Assembly (NCBI GenBank): GCA_014800845.1
Contig: JAAVFJ010000049.1
Location: 2,181 to 66,180 of the forward strand
DNA from: Bacteroidales bacterium
Lineage (GTDB): Bacteria > Bacteroidota > Bacteroidia > Bacteroidales > Muribaculaceae
Length of the DNA: 64,000 nucleotides
Direction: 5' to 3'
Of this stretch, positions 5,987-62,604 are shown in pieces (position 1 is the first letter of the stretch; each line of letters starts with the position of its first letter). A program made the translations under genes and the position numbers. Under the pieces are notes generated by a model. That model made no database searches, had not been told where the DNA came from, and saw only the letters and a program-made list of their open reading frames with translations.

Positions 5987-6925
5987 TCACACATAAGGCG
6001 CTCTAAGATGTTCTGCACGATGAATTAGGCCGAAATCAAAGTCTTCAAGCAGCTCATTTGCGGATACGGGTGTCGGCGTGGAGCGCAGCCCCGCTATGTT
6101 TGCAAGCATGCCTATCAGCTCCTCGGCACTGTAATTTTTACGTAGGGCCTCCATGCTCAACGAGGCGTCACGCTTGCTCAGTCGTCTGTCAGAGTCGGGC
6201 GAGAAAAGTAGCGGGACATGAGCAAACTCAGGGGCTGCAAAGCCAAGCAATTCATATATGTAAATCTGTTGAGCCGCTGATAGAAGCAGGTCAGAACCGC
6301 GGACTACTTCTGTTACTCCCATAAGCGCATCGTCGATTACTACTGCCAGCTGATAGCCAAAAGCGCCGTCAGCTCTGCGGACTACGAAATCGCCGCATTC
6401 CTGAGCAAGATTTACGCGTTGTTCCCCATACATTCTGTCTGTGAAATGAATATACCGGTTAGGCACAACGATACGGGTGCTATGAGGTGAGGTCGCTTCC
6501 GGAGCCGGGAATGAATCAGGTCTGCACTTTCCGGAATATATAATTCTGCCATCGCTCTGGTGAGGTGCTTGAGTGGCCATTATGTCCCCGCGCTTGCAGA
6601 AACAAGGGTAAGTGTGGCCGGAGAGCTTGGCCAGATATTGAGAATAAATCTCGCTCCGTCTGCTTTGACTGTAAGGACCATTCGCACCCTTGTCATCCAA
6701 GCCACCCTCATCCCACTCAAGACCGAGCCAAAGCAGGTCTTCTTCTATCTGCTTGGCATATTCCATGCGCGAGCGCTGCGTATCAAGGTCCTCGATACGC
6801 AATATCCATCGGCCACCGCGAGATTTAACCGATAGCCATGAAATCAGTGCGGTAAAAACATTGCCAAGGTGCATACGGCCGGTAGGGGAAGGGGCGAAGC
6901 GACCAACAGGAGGGGTTGAAAGCAT
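5987..6925 (-). CDS. gluQ: Glutamyl-Q tRNA(Asp) synthetase (GluRS catalytic domain only)
   Basis: RFAPSPTGRMHLGN, LRIEDLD, RLSKRD; 312 aa with no anticodon-binding domain. Confidence 0.9.
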   Translation of the reverse strand: MLSTPPVGRFAPSPTGRMHLGNVFTALISWLSVKSRGGRWILRIEDLDTQRSRMEYAKQIEEDLLWLGLEWDEGGLDDKGANGPYSQSRRSEIYSQYLAKLSGHTYPCFCKRGDIMATQAPHQSDGRIIYSGKCRPDSFPAPEATSPHSTRIVVPNRYIHFTDRMYGEQRVNLAQECGDFVVRRADGAFGYQLAVVIDDALMGVTEVVRGSDLLLSAAQQIYIYELLGFAAPEFAHVPLLFSPDSDRRLSKRDASLSMEALRKNYSAEELIGMLANIAGLRSTPTPVSANELLEDFDFGLIHRAEHLRAPYV

Positions 6926-7106
6926 AAGTATGAGTTCAAATTTTTACGAAATCAAATTCAAAAGCAAGAGCTATATGATGAACGTATAATTTTTAATTTT
7001 GGAGGTGATTTCACTCTGTCACTCAGGCGCATAGCTTGCCATGCGCCTGGAACAGCCTCGAAAATAGTTGCGCCTTATATGTCCATATTTTGGGGCCACT
7101 TACTTA
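6925..7106 (+). repeat. Degenerate long copy (182 bp) of the TAAGTAAG inverted-repeat family
   Basis: Left end TAAGTATGAGTTCAAATTTTTACGAAATCAAATTC aligns with the 57437 and 62535 copies. Interior TTTCACTCTGTCACTCA...GAACAGCCT aligns with the 46303 copy. Right end is CACTTACTTA. First base is shared with the gluQ ATG. Confidence 0.8.
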
Positions 7107-7184
7107 AAAATCAGTTTTGAGAGAACTTATTTTGAGCGAGAGTGTTTAAAAGGTAAACGAAATCTTAATTAAACTATTATAGAA

Positions 7185-7787
7185 ATGACACAGACAAAAA
7201 GCCTCAAAGGCACTCAGACAGAAAAATTGGTAGCAGCTTCTTATATGGCGGAAACCCAGGCTTTCGCGCGTTATACATTCTACGCGCAGGCAGCCGACAA
7301 GGAACGCCTATTCCCCATCGGCGTAATTTTCCGTGAAACTGCACAGAATGAAATTCATCACGCCAAGGTTTTCCTGAAGATGCTTGAAAACTCAGAGCTC
7401 AATGAACCCCTCGGAATTGATGCCGGCTATCTTGGCACTACTGCCGACAATCTGAAGATGGCTATCAAGGAGGAGAGCGTAGATGGCTATGAATTCTACA
7501 ATGCAGCAGCCAAGACAGCTACCGAAGAGGGCTTCCCTGAAATAGCTTCTCACTTCACAGCTATCGCTAAGGTTGAGAAATTTCACCATGACCGTTTCAT
7601 CAAGTTCCTTGACATGCTCAACAACGGCACTTTGTGGAAGCGCGAGCAACCCGTAACTTGGAAATGCCTCGTATGCGGTTACACCGTAGTAGGCACTGAG
7701 CCGCCCGCAAAATGCCCCGGTTGTGATCACCCCATGGAGCACTATGTAGCTCTCGAAGATGGCTATGCTCCCGTGGAGGACTTCTAA
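7185..7787 (+). CDS. rbr: Rubrerythrin
   Basis: Di-iron ExxH motifs (NEIHHA, VEKFHH) and C-terminal rubredoxin CLVC...CPGC. Confidence 0.93.
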   Translation: MTQTKSLKGTQTEKLVAASYMAETQAFARYTFYAQAADKERLFPIGVIFRETAQNEIHHAKVFLKMLENSELNEPLGIDAGYLGTTADNLKMAIKEESVDGYEFYNAAAKTATEEGFPEIASHFTAIAKVEKFHHDRFIKFLDMLNNGTLWKREQPVTWKCLVCGYTVVGTEPPAKCPGCDHPMEHYVALEDGYAPVEDF

Positions 7788-7805
7788 GAAAGAATTATAA
7801 ATTTA

Positions 7806-7855
7806 AAAAGATTAGGGTATTTCAAGATGCAAATTTTGAAATACCCTAATCTTTT
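7806..7855. terminator. Bidirectional intrinsic terminator between convergent genes
   Basis: Perfect 20-bp inverted repeat AAAAGATTAGGGTATTTCAA / TTGAAATACCCTAATCTTTT with a 10-nt loop. Confidence 0.8.
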
Positions 7856-7873
7856 GCATTTGCCTCTGAGTGT

Positions 7874-7999
7874 TTTTTTCCAAAAGGAGCGGGTGAAGAT
7901 TGCTATTATCACAAACACCTCCAGGCGCCCGGCAAGCATAAGAAAAGACATACCCCATTTTCCGGTAGAGGGGAGGAAATCAAAGGAACCGGTGGATCC
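7874..7999 (-). pseudogene. trkH: 3'-terminal remnant (~42 codons) of a TrkH-family potassium uptake membrane protein
   Basis: Translates GSTGSFDFLPSTGKWGMSFLMLAGRLEVFVIIAIFTRSFWKK, matching the characteristic TrkH C-terminus (GPxxxFxxLPxxxKWxLxxxMLxGRLExF...FW). No upstream coding sequence is present. Confidence 0.85.
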
Positions 8000-8001
8000 G
8001 G

Positions 8002-8020
8002 TAATTCTTGACACTTACTA
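8002..8020 (+). repeat. Isolated right-end fragment of the TAAGTAAG repeat family
   Basis: TAATTCTTGACACTTACT is identical over 18 nt to the end of the 57437 copy (reverse strand); abuts the trkH remnant. Confidence 0.75.
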
Positions 8021-8026
8021 ATTACT

Positions 8027-8809
8027 TTAGTCGGCATCTTTCCACGCGGGGAACTTCTCGCGGAAGCGCCGCAGTTTTTCTATGTCAAGCTGAGCATAGA
8101 TAAACGGATGCCCCTCCGGATGTATGCCTGTATCTTTTCCTTTGAAGTCTATGATAGCACTTTCGCCGCCATAGACGATGCCCAAGTCATCAGTACCCAG
8201 GCAGTTAACACCTGCCACGTATGCTTCATTCTCAACCGCGCGGGCACGCAGCAGCAGCTCCCAGGCGGAAGATCGCGGTTTCGGCCAGTTGGCCACGGCT
8301 ATCAGCAGGTCATATTCATTCTGTCGGTTTCTGCACCAGATGGGGAAGCGAATGTCGTAACAGACAATCATGGAAATGTTCCAGCCGCGAAAGCGCACAG
8401 CCATACGCTCTGCACCGCGACCAAAAACTTTGTCTTCTCCCGCCATAGTAAACAGGTGTTTCTTGTCGGCAAAAGTTTCCTCGCCATTAGGCTCTATGAA
8501 AAAGGCACGATTGTAGAGCACACCGCCGGAGTCTGCTATGAATGAACCAGCTATGGCCACATTGTGCTTACGCGAAAGCGCCTTGATTGTATCAATTGTT
8601 TTGCCTGTGTTGCGCTCGGCCAGAGGCCGGAGTTCATCGCGGGTCTTTCCTGACATAAATCCGGTGGAAAAAGTCTCGGGAAGAATCAGCAGATCCGTCT
8701 CCGGATGTAGCGACTCAAGTGTGTCGATCAGCACACGCATGTTCTCAGCTTTGTCACCCCACTTTATGTTTTGAGGGAAAAGAGCGATGTTAAGATTTTT
8801 GGTTGTCAT
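8027..8809 (-). CDS. Nitrilase-family amidohydrolase (omega-amidase/YafV-like)
   Basis: LILPETFSTGF (Glu), ADKKHLF (Lys), VCYDIRFP (Cys) catalytic triad motifs. Confidence 0.9.
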   Translation of the reverse strand: MTTKNLNIALFPQNIKWGDKAENMRVLIDTLESLHPETDLLILPETFSTGFMSGKTRDELRPLAERNTGKTIDTIKALSRKHNVAIAGSFIADSGGVLYNRAFFIEPNGEETFADKKHLFTMAGEDKVFGRGAERMAVRFRGWNISMIVCYDIRFPIWCRNRQNEYDLLIAVANWPKPRSSAWELLLRARAVENEAYVAGVNCLGTDDLGIVYGGESAIIDFKGKDTGIHPEGHPFIYAQLDIEKLRRFREKFPAWKDAD

Positions 8810-8819
8810 TAAGGTTTAC

Positions 8820-9362
8820 TCATATTTGGAATTTTTCCGGATAGCGGGCGCAGTCGGCAAAAGGTGCGTAATAAGATTTAATCCTTGCCAGGTCCGCTTC
8901 TATGTCTCCGGTAGGAGAGAACTCCTCATCTATGATAATCTGCTTATGCTTATAGTCTATGACGCCGAGCTGCACCAGGACACCGGCCCCATACGCTATG
9001 CGCAAGAAACCTGTGTGCCACTCAGCTTTCCCGGAGCGGGTGCCTTCGGGGGTAATTGCAAGGTTCATGTAGTCAGTTTCCTTGAATTTACGTATCAATT
9101 GAGTGGTAAGGTCCCCTTTGCGGCTGCGGGTTACGGGTATGCCGCCAAAATGACGGAAGACATATTTAAGCGGGAAGAAAAACCAACTCTCTTTCATAAG
9201 AAAATTGGCCTTTCTTCCTACAGATTTGTACGCTAATAACCCTAAGATAAAATCCCAGTTAGAGGTGTGCGGAGCTACGCATATCACGCACTTATTGCGG
9301 CGAGGAGCCTTTAGAGAAACGCGCCAGCCGAAAGTTTTCAAGAGTAGTCCGCTGATACTCAT
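8820..9362 (-). CDS. Lysophospholipid acyltransferase (PlsC family)
   Basis: APHTSNWDF (HxxxxD) and ITPEGTRS motifs. Confidence 0.9.
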   Translation of the reverse strand: MSISGLLLKTFGWRVSLKAPRRNKCVICVAPHTSNWDFILGLLAYKSVGRKANFLMKESWFFFPLKYVFRHFGGIPVTRSRKGDLTTQLIRKFKETDYMNLAITPEGTRSGKAEWHTGFLRIAYGAGVLVQLGVIDYKHKQIIIDEEFSPTGDIEADLARIKSYYAPFADCARYPEKFQI

Positions 9363-9393
9363 AATCAGGAAATCAGGTTACAACAGGTTGAGC

Positions 9394-9744
9394 TTATGCC
9401 TTCTGAGCCTGCTTGGCTGCTTCGGGTATAGCTGCGTTAAACTTCTTGATAGCTTCGTTTATTGCATCAGCAAATTCTTTATTTACTTTGCGATAAAGAG
9501 CCTTGAAGAATTTTTCTTTCTCCTCGGTGTAGGCATGTTCGTTATCAAATGCACGACGAGTCTTGTCAAACTTCACGTTGCTCTTCATGATAGCCTCAGC
9601 ACCTGCTTTCAGTATGCTGATGACAGCATCGTCTATCGCAGCCTTATCGGCGCCTTCGATAGTGTAAGACGCATAGGTCATGTCAGATACAATGTTGTCA
9701 CATACTGTATTAATGTACTTTTTGAATTCTCTTTTATTAGCCAT
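9394..9744 (-). CDS. Hypothetical alpha-helical protein
   Basis: 116-aa ORF with codon style like the neighbouring genes; co-oriented operon context. Confidence 0.75.
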   Translation of the reverse strand: MANKREFKKYINTVCDNIVSDMTYASYTIEGADKAAIDDAVISILKAGAEAIMKSNVKFDKTRRAFDNEHAYTEEKEKFFKALYRKVNKEFADAINEAIKKFNAAIPEAAKQAQKA

Positions 9745-9890
9745 AATGTTTAATGTATAATGATGGGTTACTAAAATTCTCTGCTAATATAACACTTTTC
9801 TCCGACATAGGGTTAAGAAAATGCGGAAAAAATATTATTGATTATATCGGGCACAGGTCGGAAGTTCCGCTTCCCGGTGAAAGAAATAAG

Positions 9891-9930
9891 AAATCCCGCC
9901 TCTATCCTGAGAGATATTGGCGGGATTTTT
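9891..9930. terminator. Intrinsic terminator-like hairpin downstream of the TPR gene
   Basis: AAATCCCGCC / GGCGGGATTT stem with A/T-rich flanks. Confidence 0.6.
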
Positions 9931-9961
9931 ATGTTCTTACTCGCTAAGAGTAAATAGATTC

Positions 9962-11689
9962 TTACTTCTTAATCTTAGCTAAGATATCCTTAATCTGCTG
10001 ATCGTCGGGATTGAGAGCCAGGTACTTGTTCAGCAGCTGAGTAGCAGTGGTGAAATCCTTGTTGTTGTATGCTGCAATGCCGGCGAAGCGGTACATAGCC
10101 TTAGCGTCGTTGGCGTTGTTGTTTACAACATTATTGTCTTCCATGAGCTTGAGAGCCTGAAGGTACTCTGAGGCAGCTACTGCATCCTGCTTTGAAATCT
10201 GAGCTATGTCGCCGAGACGTTTGTGCACGAGGTATTTGAACTGACCTGCAAGCTTGGGCTCTGCCTTGAGAGCAGCTTCTTTACTAAGTTCGAAGTACTT
10301 ACCCTGCACGCCGGGTTCCTGAGCTTCCTGACCGGCAACCACAGCATACTGAGAGAGTGTCCAGTATTCAGTCCCGGTGGGGTCGTTCTGTTTGGCTATA
10401 TAAGAGCTGAGCATGTCGGCAGCTTCTGCATAGCGGTCGATAGCAGCAAGGGCAGAGGCTGTTTCTTTCAGCATCTCCAGATTGTCGGGATAGTGGCTGA
10501 GACCGAGCTGAAGCACGTTGATTGCTTCATCGTTCATACCGGCTTCATTGTAGTCACGGGCAATCATGGGATAAACACCGTAGGGGAGTTTGCCACCGGT
10601 TTCTTTTTGAGCTTTGAGCAGATCGGCGGCAATCTTGATTACGTTGGGGTCCTTAAGCTCGTGAGCGAACACGTAGCTCCAGCTGCGAGCGCCAAACTGT
10701 GAGGGGTCAGAAGCTACCATTGCGTTAGCCTGAGCAAGACCGGTCTGGAAATCCTTGCTGAAGTAAAGCAGCTCGAGGTAGCGGTTCTCGTCACTCTTGA
10801 AGTGGTTGGGGTTCTTCATGAGCTTTGCGTATTCGGCAGTAGCCTGAGCCACCTGGCCATCCTTGTAGAGCTTCTCGGCGAGCTCACGCTGGCCAAGAGC
10901 AGAACCGGGAGCCTGCTGCAGAAGCTCTTTCAGCTTAGCGATGGAGAAGGGAGCGTTGATGTCAAAATATGTGTCGGCATACTTTACGTAAGCTGCACCG
11001 TCAGTGGGATTAACACGGATAGCCTCTTCATATTCATTGCAGGCGTCGCCTACGAGTTTGCTGTCAGCACCCGCAGTAGCGAAAATCATGTCGCCGCGCA
11101 GAATGTAGTAATCCTGGTCATTGGGCTGGAAGTCAGCTTTGCCGGGAGCGGCAGTGATGCGCTTATACATCAGCTTCTCAGCAGAACCGAGAGCCTTGTC
11201 AATCTGCTTCTGATAGAAGCCGGGGTTGCCGTTGATTACACCGGCATTGTAGTATGCGCGAGCAATAGCTGCATATACACCGGCATCCTTCTGAGCAAGC
11301 TTTTCAGCCTTCTTCATGTTCTCTTCAGCCTCCTTGATATTGTTCTTGTAGAGAGCTACCTGGCCGAGACCTGCATAGTTGAATGCGTAATCAGGATTTG
11401 CCTGCATACCACGGTTGAAGAAATCAGCAGCTTCGGCAAGTTCCTTCTGTGCATCGGCAGTCTTGCCACGGCGCATGTCGTAGGAATAATAATCGAGCTG
11501 GATGAGACCGAGATAATAGTAAGACTCGGATTTGTCAGTACCGGCGTTGTTGAGGTTTTTCGAGAGAAGCTCATGAGCAAGCTCAATGCGGCCTGCCTTG
11601 TAGTACTCTACACCGTCTTTGTAGCCTTCAGCCATGGCTGACAGGGAGCAAGCGGCGAGCATAAGAGCAGCTATAGATTTAAACTTCAT
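9962..11689 (-). CDS. Secreted tetratricopeptide-repeat protein
   Basis: Signal peptide (MKFKSIAALMLAACSLSAMA) and multiple TPR-like helical repeats. Confidence 0.85.
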   Translation of the reverse strand: MKFKSIAALMLAACSLSAMAEGYKDGVEYYKAGRIELAHELLSKNLNNAGTDKSESYYYLGLIQLDYYSYDMRRGKTADAQKELAEAADFFNRGMQANPDYAFNYAGLGQVALYKNNIKEAEENMKKAEKLAQKDAGVYAAIARAYYNAGVINGNPGFYQKQIDKALGSAEKLMYKRITAAPGKADFQPNDQDYYILRGDMIFATAGADSKLVGDACNEYEEAIRVNPTDGAAYVKYADTYFDINAPFSIAKLKELLQQAPGSALGQRELAEKLYKDGQVAQATAEYAKLMKNPNHFKSDENRYLELLYFSKDFQTGLAQANAMVASDPSQFGARSWSYVFAHELKDPNVIKIAADLLKAQKETGGKLPYGVYPMIARDYNEAGMNDEAINVLQLGLSHYPDNLEMLKETASALAAIDRYAEAADMLSSYIAKQNDPTGTEYWTLSQYAVVAGQEAQEPGVQGKYFELSKEAALKAEPKLAGQFKYLVHKRLGDIAQISKQDAVAASEYLQALKLMEDNNVVNNNANDAKAMYRFAGIAAYNNKDFTTATQLLNKYLALNPDDQQIKDILAKIKK

Positions 11690-11743
11690 TTGTAAAAAAT
11701 ATTATAGGTTGTGTAATTTCTATTATCTTAGATAACGCGGAAC

Positions 11744-11784
11744 AGGCATGGTTTATTTTCAAAGATTAAAAATAAACCATGCCT
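11744..11784. terminator. 16-bp hairpin between the PstS-like and TPR genes (terminator or mRNA stability element)
   Basis: AGGCATGGTTTATTTT / AAAATAAACCATGCCT perfect inverted repeat. Confidence 0.6.
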
Positions 11785-11826
11785 TTACCTATTTTTTTAT
11801 TGTCAGTGCATTAAACATGCCCGATT

Positions 11827-12819: not shown

Positions 12820-12865
12820 GGGAATTTATAACTGGTTAATCAATGGTCGGTTGGCATCTAAGGAT

Positions 12866-13084: not shown

Positions 13085-13172
13085 AATTGCGATGTTTTAA
13101 TTGGTTTTATTTTATTAACAACTATTAGCCCTAAACGTTCATTTCCGTCACCAATTATTTTACAGCTCTGTG

Positions 13173-13290: not shown

Positions 13291-13301
13291 ATCAGAATAT
13301 T

Positions 13302-29597: not shown

Positions 29598-30256
29598 AGA
29601 TATTCAGACTTAAGACTATACTTTGTCTTTCACTGCTTTGTTTAGGCTACACCTCAGTGAAGGCAGATTCATATTATGATAGACGGGTTTCACTCTTCGA
29701 ATTCCTCCCTGTCTATGAAAACGACATCGTGTTCTTAGGCAACTCAATTACTGATGGCGGTGAATTTTCCGAGCTGTTGAAAATGCCTAATGTGAAGAAC
29801 AGAGGCATAGCATCGGACGTAATGGGAGGAGTGGAAAAACGCCTTGACCAAGTGCTCCGCGGGCATCCGCAGAAGCTCTTTCTGTTGATTGGTATCAATG
29901 ACGTATCTCACAAGCTGACAGTGGAGCAGCTTGCTTCCCGCTATTCAAAATTGGTGAAGAAAATCAGGGAGATATCGCCTGACACTAAGGTTTATCTTCA
30001 GAGTGTGATGCCAATTAACAATGACTTTAAGCGCTACAAATCCCTCTATGGCACCGAGAATGTAATTAAGGGCTTCAACAATCAGATAGCGCGTATTGCT
30101 GATGAAGAGGGCTGCGTATTCATTGATTTGACAGCGGCTCTGTCTGACCCCAAGACCGGAAAACTCAAACGTAATTTTACTAATGACGGTTTGCATCTCA
30201 CCGGCGCCGGCTATAAAGCATGGATGGAAGTTGTGGAACCTTATGTCAAGGAATAA
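29594..30256 (+). CDS. SGNH/GDSL-family esterase
   Basis: FLGNSIT (Ser), NRGIASD, GIND, DGLH blocks; signal peptide. Confidence 0.88.
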   Translation: MKIFRLKTILCLSLLCLGYTSVKADSYYDRRVSLFEFLPVYENDIVFLGNSITDGGEFSELLKMPNVKNRGIASDVMGGVEKRLDQVLRGHPQKLFLLIGINDVSHKLTVEQLASRYSKLVKKIREISPDTKVYLQSVMPINNDFKRYKSLYGTENVIKGFNNQIARIADEEGCVFIDLTAALSDPKTGKLKRNFTNDGLHLTGAGYKAWMEVVEPYVKE

Positions 30257-30331
30257 GTAAGTGTCAATTGTTAATAGCATGTAATGCTTGCTTATGAAAT
30301 TGATACAGTTTAAATTTTGATACTTGTATTA
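30254..30331 (-). repeat. Short copy (78 bp) of the TAAGTAAG inverted-repeat family
   Basis: Starts in the TAA stop of the SGNH gene (TAAGTAAGTGTCAA) and ends in the A of the next ATG. Its reverse complement aligns with the 62535 copy. Confidence 0.8.
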
Positions 30332-44521: not shown

Positions 44522-46303
44522 TTAATCAACGGTGAACTTCAATCCATCGTAAGCCAGCTTTACGTTAGAGGGCAACTTGCCGGAAACATCCTGATGCTTC
44601 CCCATGTCATGACAAATATGAGTGAGATAGGCTTGCTCCGGCTTTATCTTTTCGATAACCGCCAAAGCTTCCTCCACAGTCAGGTGGCTGAAGTGGGGAG
44701 TGTAGCGCAACGCATTTATTACTAGCACCTTTACCCCTTCAAGCTTTTCAAATTCTTCTTCGGGGATCGTCTTAGCGTCAGTGATATAGGCGAAATTGCC
44801 TATTCTATAGCCAATTATAGGTAGCTGGGCATGCATTACATTTATCGGAACAATCTTCACTCCGGAGAAATAGAAGGGCTCATTGCCCACTTCATGAATC
44901 TCAAAGCCGGGCACTCCGGGATACTTATGCTCACGGAAACAGTAATCAAGCCGGCGACGCAGGTCATCAGCCACGTGCTTGAGAGCGTAGAGAGGCATAC
45001 GTTTATTGAGGCAGTAGGGGCGAAGGTCATCTATTCCACCTACGTGGTCGTAATGCTGATGAGTAATCAGCGTAGCATCAATGTCGTAGACGCCTGCTCT
45101 TATAGCTTGCTCTCTGAAATCAGGCGACGCATCCAGTAGAAGTGTCAGCCCGTGGGTCTTTATGAGCGCGGATGCGCGCAGACGCTTGTCATGCTTGTCA
45201 GGCGATGTACAAACATCGCATTGGCATGCCGGCTCCGGCACACCTTTGCTGGTTCCGCTCCCCAGAATCTCAACATGAACTGACGTGTCAATAAAATTCA
45301 CCTCAGGCTGCAGCCAGACCCCAAATTTTCGGTGCACTGTCAGCTGAATGTGACGACAAAGCGCGCTCACAGAGATGCCGGTAGCATTATTGCGATTTAC
45401 TATAATAAGGCACTGCTTTTTATAAACAGCTGCGCCACCTATGCTGCAACCTTTTAAACCGGCATGCTCAATAAGCCAACCTGCGGGAATCTTTACTTTT
45501 TCGTCAGGCAAATCGTAGCTGGGCACATCATAGCCATGCTTCAATATTTCAGCCTCGTAATAACGACGGCGCACAATGGGATTCTTAAAGAAGCTTCCTG
45601 CGCTGCCTAATACTTTGGGGTCAGGCAGTTTGGAATTGCGAATCTCATTTATTTCCGCCACGACTTCTTTTAGAGAAGGGGTGTGGCCAAGTCTCTCTGC
45701 AAGAGATTTAAGAGGTCCGTAATCCAGATTTTCGCCTGTGGCAGAAGGTGTTAACCGGAAGCAAACTCTTAAGACATAGTATCTGCCTTTGCCTTCATGC
45801 TTGAAGAAACTGTCTCTGTAAGCAAAACGACATTCTTCATTAGTGAAGTTTACTATTTTGTGAGTCAATCGGTCGTAACACTCAGCTTTGAAAATTACAT
45901 CACCGGCTTCTACACCATAGGCGCCTACATTCTGAATTACTGAAGCACCTACCTCGCCGGGTATGCCTGTAAGATTTTCCAGTCCTGCCAAATTTCGCTC
46001 GACACAGAAGTCTATTAAATCTTGCCACGCTTCTCCGGCACCGGCTATGACATAGACAGTTGATTCGTTCTTGCGATATTCAGTTAATCCTTTAACTTTG
46101 GAATGAAGAATCAATCCATCAAAATCATGGATAAACAGCAGGTTGGAGCCGCCTCCTATGTGGAGCACTTCGTTTTGCTGATACTTCGGTGTGCGCATAA
46201 TGGCCTCAAGCTCCTTTACAGAGGAGTATTCGGCAAAATACTTGGCCTTGACCGGCACACCCAAAGTGGTGAGGGAAGTTATATCGTAGTCTGATTTAAT
46301 CAT
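44522..46303 (-). CDS. murB: Fusion of UDP-N-acetylenolpyruvoylglucosamine reductase (MurB) and a PhnP-like metallo-beta-lactamase-fold hydrolase
   Basis: N-half: IGGGSNLLF, GIPG..GA..IQNVGAYG, GSAGSFFKNP, LQPEVNFI. C-half (from ~45285): LGSGTSKGVP, THQHYDHVGG. One continuous frame; start taken as ATG 46303. Confidence 0.9.
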   Translation of the reverse strand: MIKSDYDITSLTTLGVPVKAKYFAEYSSVKELEAIMRTPKYQQNEVLHIGGGSNLLFIHDFDGLILHSKVKGLTEYRKNESTVYVIAGAGEAWQDLIDFCVERNLAGLENLTGIPGEVGASVIQNVGAYGVEAGDVIFKAECYDRLTHKIVNFTNEECRFAYRDSFFKHEGKGRYYVLRVCFRLTPSATGENLDYGPLKSLAERLGHTPSLKEVVAEINEIRNSKLPDPKVLGSAGSFFKNPIVRRRYYEAEILKHGYDVPSYDLPDEKVKIPAGWLIEHAGLKGCSIGGAAVYKKQCLIIVNRNNATGISVSALCRHIQLTVHRKFGVWLQPEVNFIDTSVHVEILGSGTSKGVPEPACQCDVCTSPDKHDKRLRASALIKTHGLTLLLDASPDFREQAIRAGVYDIDATLITHQHYDHVGGIDDLRPYCLNKRMPLYALKHVADDLRRRLDYCFREHKYPGVPGFEIHEVGNEPFYFSGVKIVPINVMHAQLPIIGYRIGNFAYITDAKTIPEEEFEKLEGVKVLVINALRYTPHFSHLTVEEALAVIEKIKPEQAYLTHICHDMGKHQDVSGKLPSNVKLAYDGLKFTVD

Positions 46304-46500
46304 AAGTAAGTGTTCAAATTTAAACAATAGTAAAATATGAATAAGTAAGGTTTTAATTTTTCATACAATCTGCTGTTTCTTTTTTGCCGTTTTCACTTTG
46401 TTGCTCAACCGCTTAGCTCGCTAAGCTCCTTCGCTCCACAGCGAAACAGCCTAAAAAATAAGCTCGCATATTGTATAAATTAAATTTGAACACTTACTTA
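46303..46500 (+). mobile_element. 198-bp MITE-like element with perfect 21-bp terminal inverted repeats (longest, best-preserved member of the TAAGTAAG family)
   Basis: TAAGTAAGTGTTCAAATTTAA (46303-23) is the exact reverse complement of TTAAATTTGAACACTTACTTA (46480-500). TA at both outer ends; internal hairpin CTTAG-CTCG-CTAAG; no coding capacity. Confidence 0.75.
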
Positions 46501-53554: not shown

Positions 53555-53556
53555 TT

Positions 53557-55236: not shown

Positions 55237-55258
55237 TAACACTTATTACGCAATAATT

Positions 55259-55290: not shown

Positions 55291-55403
55291 TATTCCAAAA
55301 TCAGAGAAACCCAATCTCTTACAGCTAATCATTTAAAATTTTAACCCATCAAATCCTGAGCCTATAGATCAAATTCTACTTCAACATTAACAAAGGAATA
55401 GGA

Positions 55404-55994: not shown

Positions 55995-55998
55995 TCTC

Positions 55999-56661: not shown

Positions 56662-56756
56662 CCTGTTTTCTCCTCAAAAAATATATTTAGTAATATCTTG
56701 GCAATCAAGTATTTCTAAAAAGAGGCTTAAAAAGATTGAAAAAATTCTCGGAAAAA

Positions 56757-56788
56757 TTTGCACAGACCGAAAAAACTTCGTAACTTTG
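56757..56788 (+). promoter_or_regulatory. Promoter of tRNA-Ser
   Basis: TTTG, 20-nt spacer, TAACTTTG. Confidence 0.8.
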
Positions 56789-56828
56789 CACTCGCAAACG
56801 GGAAACAACATCCCACCACAAAAGCACT

Positions 56829-56913
56829 GGAGAGATGGCAGAGTGGTCGATTGCGGCGGTCTTGAAAACCGTTGAGGGTCACACCTCCGGGGGTTCGAAT
56901 CCCTCTCTCTCCG
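56829..56913 (+). tRNA. tRNA-Ser (anticodon UGA), CCA not encoded
   Basis: Acceptor stem GGAGAGA/TCTCTCC, anticodon loop CTTGAAA (TGA at 56863-65), long variable arm, GGTTCGAATCC T-arm, discriminator G. Confidence 0.97.
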
Positions 56914-56919
56914 CTTCTT

Positions 56920-56947
56920 AAGCCTGCTTCAAAGCAGGCTTTTTTTG
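56920..56947 (+). terminator. Intrinsic terminator after tRNA-Ser
   Basis: AGCCTGCTT / AAGCAGGCT stem plus T-tract. Confidence 0.85.
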
Positions 56948-56995
56948 TTATTGTTTTGCAGACGCGACCTCGGTCGTTTTTTTAAATTCTGAGTT

Positions 56996-57439
56996 ATGAA
57001 GATTAAAGTGAAACGTTTTGAAGAGCTCACCACTTCTGAATTATATGAAATTCTGCGTTGCAGAGCTGAAGTGTTCATCGTAGGCCAGCACTGCAACTAT
57101 CAGGATATTGATGGTGCGGACAAAGCATCGACACACATATATTTCGAAGAGGATGGTTCTATCTTAGCTTACCTTAGAGTGATTGACCCGGGAGTGAAAT
57201 TCCCGGCGGCATCTATCGGACGCGTCCTTACCATGAATGAGTTTCGCGGTCATGGTTTGGCCAGAAAGCTGATGCTTGAGGGTATATCAGTAGCACAAAA
57301 GCTCTCTGATACTATTGAGATAGAGGCTCAGTCATATCTGGTTGACTTCTACCGGTCACTCGGTTTTCGCGAAACTTCCGAGGAATATCTCATTGATGGG
57401 CTTCCTCACATCAGCATGGTTTTAAATATTTCAAAATAA
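56996..57439 (+). CDS. GNAT-family acetyltransferase (ElaA-like)
   Basis: LYEILRCRAEVFIVGQ, SIGRV...FRGHGLARKLM, AQSYLVDFYRSLGF. Confidence 0.9.
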   Translation: MKIKVKRFEELTTSELYEILRCRAEVFIVGQHCNYQDIDGADKASTHIYFEEDGSILAYLRVIDPGVKFPAASIGRVLTMNEFRGHGLARKLMLEGISVAQKLSDTIEIEAQSYLVDFYRSLGFRETSEEYLIDGLPHISMVLNISK

Positions 57440-57518
57440 GTAAGTGTCAAGAATTATATGTTCAAGATATAACACTTACTTCAGAATTTGATATCGTTTA
57501 ATTTTTGAGACTTACTTA
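57437..57518 (-). repeat. Short copy (82 bp) of the TAAGTAAG inverted-repeat family
   Basis: TAAGTAAGTGTCAAGAAT...ATTTTTGAGACTTACTTA; starts in the GNAT TAA stop and ends 5 nt before the next ATG. Confidence 0.85.
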
Positions 57519-57523
57519 AGAAC

Positions 57524-57943
57524 ATGAATTCAAAAAATACAGATCTTCAGTATACACCTGAGAATATCACTTCGCTTGGCCCGGATGAGGTGTTTGTCTT
57601 TGGCAGCAACCTTGCCGGCATGCACGGTGGCGGCGCTGCCCGTGTGGCCTTTGAGCGTTTTGGCGCGAAGATGGGGCAAGGAGTAGGCATGCAAGGCCAA
57701 TCCTATGCCATCCCTACTATGCAAGGGGGTGTCGAAACCATCAAGCCCTATGTGGACGATTTCATAGAGTTGGCCCGTGAGTGGGATCAGACCACTTTCT
57801 ATGTTACACGCATTGGCTGCGGCATCGCCGGCTTCAAGGACTCGCAGATAGCACCTCTTTTTGCCGAAGCGCTAAAGCTTTATAACATAAGACTCCCGAA
57901 ATCATTTGTTGAAGAGATCAATAAGCTCAATAATAAACATTAA
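57524..57943 (+). CDS. Stand-alone macrodomain-like protein (A1S_2505-like family)
   Basis: VFVFGSNLAGMHGGGAAR and VTRIGCGIAG resemble the two ADP-ribose-binding loops of macrodomains. Confidence 0.75.
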   Translation: MNSKNTDLQYTPENITSLGPDEVFVFGSNLAGMHGGGAARVAFERFGAKMGQGVGMQGQSYAIPTMQGGVETIKPYVDDFIELAREWDQTTFYVTRIGCGIAGFKDSQIAPLFAEALKLYNIRLPKSFVEEINKLNNKH

Positions 57944-57959
57944 ACGTGCCGTTGACGAT

Positions 57960-58334
57960 ATGAATTTTGAATCCATTAGAGACTATTGCCTGAGTTTGCC
58001 GATGGTTACTGAAGATATGGCTTTCGGCGAGGATCATCTTCTCTTCAGAATATGTGAGAAGATATTCGCTTGTGCAGAATTAAAAACGGCTGATTATCTG
58101 ACTGTCAAATCTGACCCCGAGGATGCAATTCGCCTGCGTGAGCAATTTGCTGATATAGAGCCTGCTTGGCACTGGAACAAGAAATATTGGATTCAATTGA
58201 ATCTAAACGGAAATCTGCATGATGACCACATCAAGAATCTTATTCGCAAGAGTTATTCCGAGGTGGTCAAGAAGCTACCGAAAAGAATCAGGACAACCTA
58301 TCCGGAGATTGCCGAGGTCACTGCTGAAGTATAA
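57960..58334 (+). CDS. MmcQ/YjbR-family DNA-binding protein (start corrected to ATG 57960)
   Basis: IRDYCLSLP.VTEDMAFG, KIFA, VKSDPE, PAWHWNKKYW motifs. Confidence 0.9.
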   Translation: MNFESIRDYCLSLPMVTEDMAFGEDHLLFRICEKIFACAELKTADYLTVKSDPEDAIRLREQFADIEPAWHWNKKYWIQLNLNGNLHDDHIKNLIRKSYSEVVKKLPKRIRTTYPEIAEVTAEV

Positions 58335-58355
58335 CCCTATCCCCTACTCTAAATT

Positions 58356-58994
58356 ATGATTGAAGCTTCTATTCGTGAATATATAGAGACAGAAATATTA
58401 CCTCGGTACTCTGCTTTTGACAAGGCTCACCAGGCTGACCATGTTAATATGGTAATCTCCCAAAGCTTGGATTTAGCCTCACGTTTGCAGGACATAGATG
58501 CTAACATGGCTTACGTAATAGCAGCTTATCATGATCTCGGCCTCATCAACGGGCGAGAGAATCACCACAAGGATTCAAGGATAATTCTGGAGAATGACCC
58601 TGTTTTAAAGCGTCATTTCAGCACTGAGCAAATTCGCGTGATGGGAGAAGCTGTGGAGGACCACAGAGCCTCAAAGAGCGGCAAGCCACGTAGTATTTAC
58701 GGACTGATAGTAGCCGAAGCCGACAGGTGCATTAATTGTGAATCCATCATACGCCGAACTATTCAGTATGGGCTCGGAAACTTTCCTGATTTTACCAAGG
58801 AGGAACAGTTCCTGCGCACCACGGATCATCTCAACAAGAAGTATGGTCCGGACGGATACCTGAAAGTGTGGTTGCCTTGCAGCGACAATGCCCAAAGACT
58901 TCAGGAGCTACGGAGCGTTATTTCTAATCCGGAGGTCATCAGAGAAGTTTTTGAGAGAATCTATGATGAAGAGACAGTAAATCGCCATGATTAA
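58356..58994 (+). CDS. HD-domain phosphohydrolase
   Basis: FDKAHQADH, IAAYHDLG, AVEDHRAS, IVAEADR. Confidence 0.88.
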   Translation: MIEASIREYIETEILPRYSAFDKAHQADHVNMVISQSLDLASRLQDIDANMAYVIAAYHDLGLINGRENHHKDSRIILENDPVLKRHFSTEQIRVMGEAVEDHRASKSGKPRSIYGLIVAEADRCINCESIIRRTIQYGLGNFPDFTKEEQFLRTTDHLNKKYGPDGYLKVWLPCSDNAQRLQELRSVISNPEVIREVFERIYDEETVNRHD

Positions 58995-59634
58995 AAATAT
59001 TATTTTTGATTTCGACGGCACTCTGGCCGACACTGCCTCGCTGATCGTGAAGACAATGCAGGAGACCATCAGACAGATGGAGCTACCTCCCAAAACAGAT
59101 GAAGAATGTCAGGCTACTATAGGTCTACGTCTTGAAGATGTCCCTGCCAAAATTTGGCCGGAGCTCGGCGACATTGGCAGTGAGTATGCTCAAAAGTATC
59201 GCACACTGTTCAATGAACTCAAACGCCCCTTCGACGTCAAGATGTATGCCGGGGTTATAGAGACGCTGCGGGCGCTTCATGACCGCGGCATAAATATGGC
59301 CATAGCAAGCAGTCGCAGCCACACGTCACTCAAGGAATACATAGAGCAATTCAACCTCGTGGAATGTTTTGAGATGCTTGTAGGGGGCAATGATGTGGCC
59401 AACGGTAAACCTGCCCCCGATCCGGTCCTGAGTATTACTGACAAACTCGGGTGGGATGTAGGCGAGACACTAACTGTAGGCGATGCGGCAGTCGACATAC
59501 TTATGGGACAAGCCGCCTGTACTGAAACTTGTGCCGTGACATACGGTAACGGTAATGCCAAAGAACTTGAAGCTGTGTACCCCACCTATATTATCGATGT
59601 CTTCCCTGATTTACTTCAGTGCATCGAAGGATAA
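58987..59634 (+). CDS. HAD-superfamily phosphatase (Gph-like)
   Basis: FDFDGTLADT, IASS, GKPAPD, VGDAAVD motifs. Confidence 0.92.
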   Translation: MIKNIIFDFDGTLADTASLIVKTMQETIRQMELPPKTDEECQATIGLRLEDVPAKIWPELGDIGSEYAQKYRTLFNELKRPFDVKMYAGVIETLRALHDRGINMAIASSRSHTSLKEYIEQFNLVECFEMLVGGNDVANGKPAPDPVLSITDKLGWDVGETLTVGDAAVDILMGQAACTETCAVTYGNGNAKELEAVYPTYIIDVFPDLLQCIEG

Positions 59635-59664
59635 AATAGTTATCACTTAAAAAAGCAGACGAAC

Positions 59665-60588
59665 ATGATAACATATTTGAAATGCGACAACGGTTTCTCC
59701 GAAATCGGCGAATGGCGTCCCGGATGCTGGGTAAATGTAGAGCAGCCCACCCATTCTGAGATTGATACGCTGAAATCGAAATTCGGACTTCCGGAAGATT
59801 TCCTGAATGACATCTCGGATATTGACGAGCGACCCCGAGTGGAACGCACTGACGGCTGGATCTGTACTATTTTGCGTATCCCGGTGGCTTATAAAGAAGA
59901 GGATATCCCGTTCATCACTATACCTGTCGGCGTAATCGTCAATGGGGAATATGTTATCACGGTCTGTTACTTTGCCAACCACGTAATCTCTGATTTCATA
60001 GACCACACCCAGAGACGCAGCACAGAGGTAAACACTGCTCCTGACTTTATTCTCAGATTGCTGAACAGCTCAACATACTGGTTCCTTCAGTATCTGAAAG
60101 AGGTAAGGAACCTGGTGTCAGACTCCGAAAGCGACCTGCAGAAGAGTATACGAAATGAGGAATTAATCAGACTGATGAACCTTCAGAAATCTTTCGTGCT
60201 CTTCGCCACATCCATAAGTGGCAACAATATATTGTTGGAGAGGATTAATATATTGTATAGATCGGAGCTTGACCGTGACCTGTTTGACGACGTGAGGATT
60301 GAGCTGCGCCAGGCCGACATGTCTGTTACTATAGCTACCCAAATGCTAGATCGCACACTTGGAACCTACGCTTCTGTGATTTCCAATAATGTGAATGCCA
60401 TAATGAAACGCCTGACAAGCATCTCCCTGATACTGATGATTCCCACACTGATTGCAAGCTTCTACGGTATGAACGTAGATGTCGGCATATCCATGGATAA
60501 TCATTGGGCATTTACAGCCATTGTAAGTGTAGGTTTCCTTTTGTCCATAGTAATCTGCCTATGGCTCCGAAAAATTAAGTGGCTATAA
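59665..60588 (+). CDS. corA: CorA-family divalent cation transporter
   Basis: DIDERPR, ISNNVNAIMKRLT, ASFYGMN signature and two C-terminal TMs. Confidence 0.9.
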   Translation: MITYLKCDNGFSEIGEWRPGCWVNVEQPTHSEIDTLKSKFGLPEDFLNDISDIDERPRVERTDGWICTILRIPVAYKEEDIPFITIPVGVIVNGEYVITVCYFANHVISDFIDHTQRRSTEVNTAPDFILRLLNSSTYWFLQYLKEVRNLVSDSESDLQKSIRNEELIRLMNLQKSFVLFATSISGNNILLERINILYRSELDRDLFDDVRIELRQADMSVTIATQMLDRTLGTYASVISNNVNAIMKRLTSISLILMIPTLIASFYGMNVDVGISMDNHWAFTAIVSVGFLLSIVICLWLRKIKWL

Positions 60589-60594
60589 AAAGAT

Positions 60595-60634
60595 ATTGCC
60601 TCGCGCTGAGATGAATCTGTCAGCGCGAGGCAAT
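60595..60634. terminator. Strong bidirectional terminator between corA and trxA
   Basis: 15-bp perfect stem ATTGCCTCGCGCTGA / TCAGCGCGAGGCAAT. Confidence 0.8.
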
Positions 60635-60660
60635 TATTTGTGGTCGATTTTAGGCTTGCG

Positions 60661-60826
60661 TTAGAGAATGTTTGGATTTAAATGATTTTAGCACAAAGAG
60701 AGATTTTGGGATGATTTTTCAAAGTTGAAGAGAGAGCGATGCGGGCATCGCGACCGATGAAATCTTTGGAAAAGCGCCCAAAAGATCCTTTGTGATGAAA
60801 TCAAAAATTAATAAACTATTCTCTAA
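60661..60826. repeat. 166-bp imperfect palindromic element (second MITE-like type)
   Basis: Nested inverted repeats: TTAGAGAAT/ATTCTCTAA, GATTTTAGCACAAAG/CTTTGTGATGAAATC, TTTTGGG/CCCAAAA, TTTTCAAAG/CTTTGGAAAA, central GCGATGC-GG-GCATCGC. Confidence 0.65.
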
Positions 60827-60857
60827 TCTTTAATTTGGTTTAAATTCAAACACTCTC

Positions 60858-61172
60858 TTAGAGCAGCGCTTCGAGCTTTGAACGGAGCTCATCGTAAGAC
60901 ACGAGGCCTACGGTGCGATCCTTAAGCTCGCCATCCTTGAAGAAGAGTACGGTGGGGATGTTACGCACACGGTTCTCGGCAGAGAGCTCATCGTTTTCGT
61001 CAACATTGAGCTTGCCGACCACAGCCTTGCCTTCAAATTCTTCAGCAAGTTTTTCTACTGAAGGACCGAGCTTGATGCAGGGACCGCACCACTCTGCCCA
61101 CAGATCAACTACTACAGCTTTGCCGGAAGCAATTGCTTCTTTTGCTGTTGCATCAGTGAATTGTAATGCCAT
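60858..61172 (-). CDS. trxA: Thioredoxin
   Basis: WAEWCGPC active site, VRNIPT; 104 aa. Confidence 0.95.
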   Translation of the reverse strand: MALQFTDATAKEAIASGKAVVVDLWAEWCGPCIKLGPSVEKLAEEFEGKAVVGKLNVDENDELSAENRVRNIPTVLFFKDGELKDRTVGLVSYDELRSKLEALL

Positions 61173-61226
61173 AATTTTTCGCTTTTATATATATGTTTCG
61201 GTTTTCTTTATGGAGTTTTCAGACTT

Positions 61227-61257
61227 CAAAGTTAATAAAACTTCGCCTAAAATCAAA
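61227..61257 (-). promoter_or_regulatory. Proximal promoter for trxA
   Basis: TTTG, 19-nt spacer, TAACTTTG. Confidence 0.75.
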
Positions 61258-61312
61258 AGGGGGACGTCGGGCAGTAGGCCCGGTGCCCGTTGGCGAAGCC
61301 ATTTGATTGAGG

Positions 61313-61320
61313 CAAAGTTA
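61313..61320 (-). promoter_or_regulatory. Second, distal -7 element (TAACTTTG) upstream of trxA
   Basis: Exact TAnnTTTG followed by C; no clear -33 element. Confidence 0.55.
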
Positions 61321-61383
61321 CGAATTTTTTATAAAACCGTTGAGATAAGATCGTATAATTTTCGCGAAGATTTCTCCACCCTA

Positions 61384-61959
61384 TTATACCAGCCTATGTT
61401 TCATGGCGTAATACACGAGTGCCGGGGCACTGTGCATACCGGTTTTTTCAGCCAAATTCTTTCGGTGCGTGAGCACCGTATTGACCGAGATTCCCAATTT
61501 AACGGCAATTTCCTTAACAGATAAGCCCATCACAGTCTCCCTCAGCACGTCCACCTCTCGAGCAGTAAGCCTCAAGTCATCTACCTTTTCGGGTTTTCCA
61601 GCCAGATGATGAGGATGATGCACCACTGCAATTTGTCCATTAATAAAGCTTCCGAGAGTCTTACTAATCTCCTGCTCGGTAGCTAATGGGGAAAGGCACG
61701 GCAAAGAATTGCGGCCGTCAGTCAGAGGTCGTGATGAGGTTAGCAACAGCACTGCAGAGAGACGCGGCATAAGGTGTCGCGCAAAGGCGGCCATAGCTGC
61801 CGATGATACAATATATTTATCGGCCTCGGGCCACCCGTCAGGCGCACTCACATTGTCACAGTCGAAAATCAACACCTCGGCTGCCGGATACTTTTCGCGT
61901 ATCACTTCGCGCAGTCCGAGAGATTGGAGTGGCGCAAGTCCTATCAGGGCTATCCTCAT
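61384..61959 (-). CDS. LuxR-family transcriptional regulator with degenerate N-terminal domain
   Basis: C-terminal LTAREVDVL...SVKEIAVKLGISVNTVLTHRKNL HTH. Confidence 0.88.
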   Translation of the reverse strand: MRIALIGLAPLQSLGLREVIREKYPAAEVLIFDCDNVSAPDGWPEADKYIVSSAAMAAFARHLMPRLSAVLLLTSSRPLTDGRNSLPCLSPLATEQEISKTLGSFINGQIAVVHHPHHLAGKPEKVDDLRLTAREVDVLRETVMGLSVKEIAVKLGISVNTVLTHRKNLAEKTGMHSAPALVYYAMKHRLV

Positions 61960-61970
61960 CTATCCGGAAC

Positions 61971-62528
61971 TTATTTTCGCGTGTAATAGATTCCGTTCTC
62001 GGTTATGACAATATCAACCGGCACGTCATGGCTCTCGGCGGGGATGTCATCTACTACCTGAAATTCGTAAGCCACACCTATTTTAGATGCCTTTGTAGTA
62101 GCCAGCAGCCTGTCGTAATAACCTTTGCCGCGACCCAGGCGATTGCCCCTGCGGTCATAGGCAACTGCAGGCACCACTATTAGCTCCATAGTCTCGGGGT
62201 CTGCAAATTCATCGCCCACGGGTTCCTCTATATGAAATGAGCCGAGTTCAAGGCGAGTCCTGTCGTAGGGTAATATGTCGAGGTTAACCCCATTAACTCG
62301 CGGAAGAAAGAAACTCTTTGTCGCCGACCACTTTTTCAGAAATCTGCGAGTCTCCACCTCGTCGGGAAGTGAATGGTACATGAGGATTCGAGATGCCATC
62401 AGAAACTGTGCTGTCTTCTCCAGGCGCTCGAAAATGCTATCGGAAGCGGAGTCACGCTCCTCGGCCGAAAGCATCAGTCTCATATTTTTTATTTTGCGTC
62501 TAAGATGTGTCTTATCAAATTGGTCCAT
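61971..62528 (-). CDS. ygfA: 5-formyltetrahydrofolate cyclo-ligase
   Basis: KTHLRRKI, LPDEVET, VVPAVAYDRRGNRLGRGKGYYDR, HDVPVD motifs. Confidence 0.93.
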   Translation of the reverse strand: MDQFDKTHLRRKIKNMRLMLSAEERDSASDSIFERLEKTAQFLMASRILMYHSLPDEVETRRFLKKWSATKSFFLPRVNGVNLDILPYDRTRLELGSFHIEEPVGDEFADPETMELIVVPAVAYDRRGNRLGRGKGYYDRLLATTKASKIGVAYEFQVVDDIPAESHDVPVDIVITENGIYYTRK

Positions 62529-62534
62529 GGTACT

Positions 62535-62604
62535 AAAGTAAGTATCAAAAATTTAACGATATCAAATTCATAAGTAAGTATCACGCCCTGTTGACACTCA
62601 CTTA
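62535..62604 (+). repeat. Short copy (70 bp) of the TAAGTAAG inverted-repeat family
   Basis: AAAGTAAGTATCAAAAATTTAACGATATCAAATTCATAAGTAAGTAT...TTGACACTCACTTA; first 47 nt nearly identical to the reverse complement of 57472-57518. Confidence 0.85.

Follow-up and report, generated by a model that had tools for sequence, protein, structure and literature searches.

A dispersed family of TA-bounded miniature inverted-repeat elements, very probably of IS630 type, lies beside start and stop codons with biased orientation in an uncultured Muribaculaceae genus

The stretch of DNA analysed here (the window, 64,000 nucleotides) belongs to a metagenome-assembled genome (MAG) of an uncultured gut genus of the Muribaculaceae, and contains six members of a family of short, TA-bounded inverted-repeat elements, several of which share bases with the start or stop codons of neighbouring genes. 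It corresponds to positions 2181-66180 of contig C49 in the assembly termed G000 (2.45 Mb, 82 contigs, 52.7% GC); G labels denote genomes, C numbers contigs of G000, and F, B or L numbers individual element loci. The orientation of each copy is defined by its conserved arm, termed L, the opposite end being R. Reading from L to R, the copies at 6925-7106, 46303-46500 and 62535-62604 lie on the + strand and those at 30254-30331 and 57437-57518 on the - strand.

The first copy (182 bp, 6925..7106, L at 6925, R at 7106; nhmmer E=6.5e-28) belongs to what is here called the B subfamily, is degenerate in both inverted repeats, and occupies the divergent spacer between a gluQ-like gene (-) and a rubrerythrin gene (+). 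The T of its L end is common to the CAT at 6923-6925, i.e. the ATG of the gluQ-like gene, in which Pfam tRNA-synt_1c begins at residue 9; its R end lies 78 nt from the rubrerythrin ATG. At 8002..8020 (+) there is a solo R terminus (TTGACACTTACT-AA), the remainder of the element being absent (repeat match at C49:10201, window 8021). An old and diverged short form of 78 bp (30254..30331, -, R at 30254, L at 30331) supplies, with the TAA of its R end (30254-30256), the stop codon of a GDSL lipase gene, and with the last A of its L end (30331) the A of the ATG of a DUF5106 gene. The second B-subfamily copy (198 bp, 46303..46500, +), recognised from the sequence and by nhmmer, has perfect 21-bp inverted repeats, each with an outward TAAATTTG 12 nt from its end; the T of its L end is common to the CAT at 46301-46303, the ATG of a murB-MBL fusion gene, and its R end is 1 nt off the stop of the upstream 313-aa gene. 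In the 82-bp short form at 57437..57518 (-, R at 57437, L at 57518) the R-end TAA (57437-57439) is the stop codon of a GNAT gene, and the L end lies 5 nt before the ATG of a 139-aa gene. The last copy, a short form of 70 bp (62535..62604, +), likewise recognised from the sequence and by nhmmer, has its L end 6 nt from the ATG of a 5-formyltetrahydrofolate (5-FTHF) cyclo-ligase gene (-) and its R end 17 nt from the stop of an S41 peptidase gene (-). The flanking genes and their starts were checked by open reading frame (ORF) listing and Pfam scans, and Pfam coverage backs the start codons of the gluQ-like gene, the murB fusion and the 5-FTHF cyclo-ligase gene.

An earlier note, made from the sequence of this DNA, had described the six elements; all are present at the coordinates given above and form one family, which nhmmer recovers genome-wide. 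Their shared ends, the conserved left arm and a third, internal copy of TAAGTAAGT are real, as are the three copies sharing the A of an ATG (6925, 30331, 46303) and the two supplying an upstream TAA stop (30254-30256, 57437-57439). The note had placed five copies downstream of a co-oriented gene, of which there are only four, the copy at 6925-7106 lying between divergent genes; and its figure of one copy per 10 kb extrapolates to too high a copy number, the measured density being about 1 per 55 kb and the window enriched, with 5 of the ~45 copies.

Copies in G000 were counted by nhmmer, with the left arm, which alone finds 36, and then with a full-length model that adds right-arm pieces at contig ends, to give ~40-45 in total. 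Thirteen are intact (194-227 bp, 92-100% mutually identical), five are diverged B-subfamily copies (180-198 bp, both long window copies among them), about ten are short forms (69-82 bp), and 13 are pieces cut by contig ends; the repeat content of the Muribaculaceae breaks assemblies, 13 contig ends of the MAG stopping inside the element. The full form is ~195 bp long and lacks an ORF, copies range from about 70 to 241 bp, and no ORF is conserved. The terminal inverted repeats span 21 bp, are perfect in young copies (TAAGTAAGTGTCAAAAATTAA / TTAATTTTTGACACTTACTTA), and co-vary between the arms across subfamilies. As to the third, internal TAAGTAAGT, it repeats the left end directly at a subterminal position, and the two co-vary across subfamilies; the L arm consists of an R-arm-type repeat and an extra 36 nt. 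The interior is a C-rich core with a GCATAGC..GCTATGC hairpin, and the internal AUG of the element differs between subfamilies. The suggestion that the short forms are internal deletions is borne out by four 78-bp copies, whose deletion junction is the same and lies at a TTATATG microhomology. The L arm of one copy (C5) carries an additional 32-bp tandem duplication, and variants of 240-242 bp in genomes G015 and G021 (L257, L258, L262, L263, L266, L271) have a ~45-bp interior insertion (…GACTCGTCATT…GTCGATTTTCAA…).

Beyond G000, 18 out of 24 same-genus genomes give BLAST matches to a full copy, at 67-81% identity and often in 10-20 copies or more, the family being present in them as diverged subfamilies. 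The same search across 16 other families of the order returned a single marginal match. A scan of 185,579 species genomes for the exact pattern of the G000 left arm gave zero matches because the family is too diverged between species, BLAST and hidden Markov model searches within the genus having succeeded. A full element copy has no Rfam match at E<=1, at the Rfam gathering score the whole window yields nothing but a tRNA, phage records contain no match to the element, and a literature search found no paper describing the family. As a separate observation, contig C63 (7150 bp) has inward-pointing right arms of the element at both ends, and may be a composite or rearranged segment.

TA opens the left end in 92 of 94 copies and closes the right end in 91 of 94, and the flanks of these 94 copies hold no flanking repeat other than TA. 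The preceding position (-1) is A or T in 91% and the following position (+1) A or T in 70%. The target reads W-TA-W and is near-palindromic. Because of this target, and because the element begins AGT, a copy that enters a TAA or TAG stop codon at its TA restores TAA, and one that enters T-ATG at its TA has the ATG directly beside it; moreover, each element end, when read from outside, offers TAA in two frames within 7 nt. The coincidence of element ends with codons thus follows directly from the sequence, and needs no special function. A narrower artefact, in which the CAT beside the L end reflects a CATATG-like target, was rejected: the target is merely W-TA-W, and 19% of copies have CA before the L end.

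Comparison of orthologous loci shows two of the window junctions to be empty in all syntenic relatives. The junction between the S41 peptidase and 5-FTHF cyclo-ligase genes is conserved and element-free in 24 of 24 genus relatives, with a spacer of 23 nt in the closest relative, G005, compared with 26 nt plus the 70-bp element in G000. That between the GDSL lipase and DUF5106 genes is element-free in 12 of 12 syntenic relatives, and in four of them (G006, G002, G008, G024) the upstream gene ends on the same GAA TAA, the stop codon that in G000 is the first TAA of the element. At the GNAT/139-aa gene junction synteny is not kept in relatives; the filled arrangement at 57437-57518 recurs in independent metagenome assemblies of the species. 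More generally, in such independent assemblies (contigs retrieved via exact proteins) the sites are all filled or broken inside the element.

A search of the genus with Pfam DDE_3 identified an IS630-family transposase in genome G020, with the 3' end TAAGTAAGTCGTAAAAATTAATTTATAC, relatives of which account for 391 stretches across the Bacteroidales. The corresponding insertion sequence (IS) is hosted by Duncaniella muris, other Muribaculaceae, Prevotella and Bacteroides; whole copies measure 1104-1114 bp, one being contig NZ_PUEC01000080.1 of Duncaniella muris DSM 103720. The 1114-bp form encodes a 344-aa DDE_3 transposase, and has TAAGTAAGTCGTAAAAATTAATTTATAC as its right end and TAAGTAGATGTTGAAAATTAG as its left; the ends conserved across copies are TAAGTAGATGTTGAAAATTAGTTTATATCA (left) and TAAGTAAGTCGTAAAAATTAATTTATACTA (right). 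The IS right end TAAGTAAGTCGTAAAAATTAA matches the repeat of the present element at 18 of 21 bases, and the match extends further in the R arm of the B subfamily (…AATTTATAC). Both the IS left end and the L arm carry a second, partial end copy ~36-37 nt inside, and IS copies are likewise flanked by TA. G000 itself retains a 287-bp internally deleted IS (C58:35-321; left end plus the last 240 bp), TA-flanked and 92% identical to the Duncaniella muris IS, which is possibly a snapshot of how such elements originate, and a second, decayed IS630-family remnant at C77:13824-14135. The interior of the element has no similarity to that of the IS, a search of G000 having returned the C58 remnant only, and no full-length IS bounded by the element's repeats is present in the draft of G000.

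The combination of inverted repeats, TA ends, dispersed copies, empty orthologous sites and near-identical IS630-family ends makes identification of the element as belonging to the MITEs (miniature inverted-repeat transposable elements) well supported, and it is very probable that the copies constitute a MITE superfamily of one Muribaculaceae genus, with an IS630-type parent and a TA target. As judged from the shared ends, an IS630-family DDE transposase, encoded by an IS with almost the same ends, would move the MITE in trans, and by analogy with IR-DR elements the internal TAAGTAAGT may be a second transposase-binding site. The earlier proposal of a non-autonomous mobile element under strong selection after insertion thus stands as regards the element itself, with its repeats, TA ends, empty sites and IS630 partner, whereas the selection is read from statistics of orientation and distance only.

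Those statistics derive from the G000 copies and from a sample of ~100 further copies in 12 related species, giving >140 insertions in all. In G000, 23 of 33 scorable L ends lie between -1 and 42 nt from a start codon, and within 42 nt of a start the L arm is found 23 times as against once for the R arm (p=3e-6). The sole close R end is 35 nt from a start and the other start-facing R ends are at least 61 nt and up to 95 nt away, gaps (35-95 nt) that leave room for a promoter. In tandem contexts the arrangement with L at the start and R at the stop occurs 12 times and the reverse twice (p=0.013), and a start codon lies within 16 nt for 18 of 40 elements, compared with 12.7% of intergenic TA sites (p=5e-7). 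Surviving copies concentrate in very short operon spacers and in 5' leaders, some being found in convergent spacers or far from genes. The sample from relatives gives 36 versus 13 for L versus R arms near starts (p=0.0014) and 34 versus 21 in tandem contexts, and when one reversed subfamily, considered below, is set aside, all tandem contexts together give 43 versus 14 (p=1.5e-4). In divergent spacers the start-proximal arm is L in 10 cases versus 2, regardless of gene strand, and the B type is L-biased 14 to 2.

Both the positioning relative to starts and stops and the orientation thus exceed chance. The polarity, which had been described as the same in every case, is so inside the window, but genome-wide it is a strong bias rather than a rule, with the two reversed tandem copies and 8 L ends that face stop codons in G000; that the bias is real can be stated with considerable confidence.

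With respect to transcription, the native promoter consensus of G000 is TTTG-N20-TA(a/c)(t/c)TTTG(c); the TA is preceded by a T-run at -7 to -3. TAnnTTTG occurs 330 times in 632 upstream regions, as against 55 for a variant longer by one base, and is the genome's true promoter motif. About 10% of such -7 boxes end 0-10 nt from an ATG, so that many mRNAs would be leaderless or nearly so. Among loci whose L-adjacent gene has no upstream cistron, F1 (a tRNA-synthetase gene), L120 and L137 have the complete consensus promoter at 21-30 nt upstream of the R end, and F2, F5 and B1 a sense -7 box at 20-41 nt upstream of it. Because these native promoters lie upstream of the R end, the elements concerned would sit in 5' leaders and be read from R to L. 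Within the element, B-type repeats alone have an exact -7 box, which reads TAAATTTG (one G021 type has TAATTTTG) and stands in both arms at 12 nt from the end. In the L arm, a search for a complete Bacteroidetes promoter with the native TTTG-N20-TAnnTTTG spacing found none.

As RNA, the element is predicted to form a long rod. A consensus hairpin of 64 pairs accounts for 20 representatives (<88% identical) with 96.4% of cells paired, none of 500 shuffles being as good and slid controls reaching 37-46%. Compensatory changes occur in 48 of the 64 pairs, the two inner helices, which lie inside the terminal repeats, having them in 37 of their 40 pairs. The two strands are not equivalent: the R-to-L strand, which is purine-rich and G-rich, folds 10-20 kcal/mol better in 99 of 100 scored copies (e.g. 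-73.5 versus -52.8), the single exception being the degenerate window copy at 6925-7106, while the interior of the L-to-R strand is C-rich (C 22.6%, G 15.8%). Where a pair is predicted from either strand alike, there are 65 G-U as against 28 A-C combinations. The centre of the element contains, solely on the R-to-L strand, three tandem GA/GA internal loops, conserved in all subfamilies, which are spaced by 2-bp steps and flank the GCAUAGC/GCUAUGC hairpin (e.g. window 46395-46445; L001:1550-1610), and one arm of this centre contains AAGGAG. Modelling of the R-to-L RNA lacking its last 21 nt suggests that the rod would already be closed, the 5' repeat pairing with the complement of the internal repeat copy, so that an AU-rich tail would remain before the AUG. 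For start codons within 5 nt of the element, the predicted accessibility is 0-0.25.

These observations are consistent with the following explanation. The elements would be transcribed within host mRNA from native upstream promoters or upstream genes, from R to L, and the RNA would fold into a long rod with the upstream stop and downstream start at the base of one stem. Copies beside starts whose mRNA carries the L-to-R strand would be removed after insertion by purifying selection, and copies next to a start would persist mainly when the mRNA carries the R-to-L strand, i.e. a compact rod followed by the 36-nt AU-rich extension before the AUG. The C-rich, less folded L-to-R RNA would be polar, most plausibly via Rho-dependent termination or poor initiation. 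As a whole, the proposal of a tolerated, IS630-derived and co-transcribed MITE, the orientation of which is filtered by selection, is moderately favoured; that selection after insertion causes the polarity is likewise somewhat probable in its own right, and the specific Rho or initiation cause is put forward only tentatively.

Several results weigh against this explanation. No intact partner IS is present in the draft of G000, and no same-species empty site, by which a duplicated TA could be told from the repeat itself, was found among the contigs retrieved via exact proteins; nor were empty sites recovered from Logan contigs of four gut metagenomes, in which coverage is low and fragmentary. 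RNA-seq runs searched for the element sequence gave no match, so that co-transcription and the polar effect are read from sequence. The gene calls come from our own crude codon-usage finder, trained on G000 and reused on relatives, two genes that it overlooked having been corrected. An orientation-dependent difference in AUG accessibility at equilibrium was rejected as the cause of polarity, the values for native and flipped elements being 0.38 and 0.377, and an intrinsic terminator on the disfavoured strand was rejected, none being predicted on either strand. An upstream AUG in the R arm was also rejected as the cause, the B type having none and yet being strongly L-biased. In particular, the subfamily TAAGTAGCTAC..AATTAATCGA of G015 and G021 is reversed in polarity; its split at independent loci, 9 to 3, differs from that of the other copies (Fisher p=0.0015). 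In the reversed loci (L006, L106, L128, L129, L163, L255, L258, L263, L266) the upstream stop directly adjoins the L end, and the distance between the R end and the downstream start is 12-27 nt in six of the nine and 75-433 nt in three. No sequence feature explaining the reversal was found; because this subfamily shares the folding asymmetry of the others, that asymmetry alone cannot be the determinant of polarity.

The readings that compete with selection against one orientation account for parts of the same evidence. The earlier suggestion of a portable intercistronic module may be taken in two ways, one being that the L arm, or both repeats, act as an outward Bacteroidetes promoter driving the adjacent gene, copies being kept for the expression conferred. 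The exact -7 box of the B-subfamily repeats, 12 nt from the element end, is an instance of the motif that the genome uses, sometimes at 0-10 nt from an ATG; furthermore, a transcript starting inside the element would escape the burial in a 21-bp stem that is predicted for starts 0-5 nt from an element transcribed whole (accessibility 0.0-0.25). However, the box is present in both repeats of the B type and so cannot explain its L bias, the main G000 family and the G009, G018, G010 and G003 types show the same L-arm preference with no TAnnTTTG in the L arm, a -33 TTTG at the native 20-nt spacing is lacking, and at F1, L120 and L137 a complete native promoter precedes the R end. A promoter role, which fits one subfamily only, is thus an unlikely basis for the pattern. 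The other form of the module, a domesticated intercistronic RNA, supposes that the R-to-L rod binds a host factor or is processed (e.g. by RNase III), and is kept by positive selection since it couples, insulates or stabilises the neighbouring cistrons. Covariation far beyond the terminal repeats, the one-stranded GA/GA loops of all subfamilies, the near-universal folding advantage of the R-to-L strand, the meeting of stop and start at the base of the stem, and insertions that are fixed in all sampled assemblies of the species are what such a module would lead one to expect. Against it stand the near-identical copies, which point to recent bursts, the copies in convergent spacers and far from genes, the orthologous junctions that function in relatives with no element, the subfamily with reversed polarity and the lack of an Rfam match; a rod shape is common among MITEs, and a host protein might equally well bind the conserved centre as double-stranded DNA. 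This form, too, is of low probability. The same grade of doubt attaches to a related idea drawn from the sequence, that the element is not simply a parasite that is tolerated, and that the R-to-L rod with its three tandem G-A loops is a mobile intercistronic device of Bacteroidales devoid of Shine-Dalgarno sequences: with the stop and the AUG at the stem base, a terminating ribosome, a processing nuclease or a bound factor would open the AU-rich 36-nt L extension for initiation, and the internal repeat copy might be an alternative pairing partner that frees the leader.

It may be, alternatively, that the orientation bias is set at insertion, by coupling to transcription or replication or by an asymmetric target, rather than by later selection. 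The bias is already present in the youngest G000 copies (those 92-100% identical), and the flanks are slightly asymmetric, with A or T at 91% on the left versus 70% on the right. The repeats, by contrast, are perfect over 21 bp and the target is near-palindromic, L is start-proximal in divergent spacers on either gene strand, one subfamily is reversed, and to our knowledge cut-and-paste insertion of the IS630/Tc1 type is not oriented; an origin of the bias at insertion is therefore rated as quite improbable. Least credible, and scarcely to be entertained, is that the element is a single-strand recombination site, whether attC-like, as the earlier note had raised, or of another kind, or that it is a repeat of REP/RAYT type. 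An imperfect palindrome with strand-specific structure is what such sites share with the present element, but TA at both ends and 21-bp terminal repeats matching an IS with a DDE transposase are not expected of them; at 195 bp the element greatly exceeds REPs in length, its copies are scattered singly and form no cassette arrays, and no integrase or tyrosine recombinase is found among the window flanking genes, no genome-wide integrase search having been made.

A second, unrelated dispersed repeat of ~180 bp is also present in the window, at 60662-60840, with the terminal repeats TTAGAGAAT(G)TTT… / …AAACTATTCTCTAA. At least seven copies in G000 are near-full and 90-98% identical, many further pieces lie at contig ends, and several copies adjoin MITEs of the first family (C14, C48). 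In four gut metagenomes its depth is 290-920x, as compared with ~7x for its flanks.

The Muribaculaceae are dominant and mostly uncultured gut bacteria, the gene regulation of which is poorly known. With the present family, a Bacteroidales MITE superfamily gains a named IS630 parent, and over 140 insertions whose orientation bias can be measured become available, as does a strongly covarying rod. If the bias is one of orientation-dependent polarity, the elements would be natural probes of what leaders and spacers require when translation proceeds without Shine-Dalgarno pairing; if not, they repeat what is already known from ERIC and Correia elements. The reversed subfamily, the strand-specific GA loops and the buried start codons are the features of most experimental interest.

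Among known systems, Nezha and other IS630-derived MITEs of cyanobacteria are non-autonomous, deletion-type derivatives with a TA target. They differ from the present MITE in phylum and sequence, and we know of no description of start or stop abutment, or of polarity, for them. Porphyromonas gingivalis, of the same order Bacteroidales, has MITE464/BrickBuilt (PMC4596501) and MITE239 (PMC2575886). These are probably unrelated families with other IS parents. The Correia/NEMIS elements of Neisseria duplicate TA, the dinucleotide that also bounds the present MITE, and resemble it in their terminal inverted repeats and in having long and short forms set apart by an internal deletion. For Correia elements an IHF site and RNase III processing are documented, and no partner transposase is known to us. 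The present MITE differs in its repeats and in that a plausible partner transposase has been identified. Correia/NEMIS elements are often near genes and co-transcribed with them, their repeats form RNA hairpins, and outward promoters have been proposed in their ends (PMC2229807). There is also a likeness to ERIC/IRU of the Enterobacteriaceae and Yersinia, which are likewise small (~127 bp), rod-forming, TA-bounded and linked to IS630, ERIC being filed with IS630 in ISfinder as MITEEc1 (10.1101/2024.01.18.576219). From De Gregorio et al. 2005, as it is summarised in PMC2229807, ERIC is co-transcribed with flanking genes and has orientation-dependent effects on mRNA. By contrast, the present MITE is 195 bp long, has an extra subterminal direct repeat in one arm, and resides in Bacteroidales without Shine-Dalgarno sequences rather than in a proteobacterium; no relationship in sequence is expected, the parallel is one of function, membership not being claimed, and the RNase E mechanism is that of ERIC. 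Thus the family is new, whereas the behaviour proposed for it, i.e. co-transcription, hairpins and orientation effects, is already known from ERIC and Correia/NEMIS.

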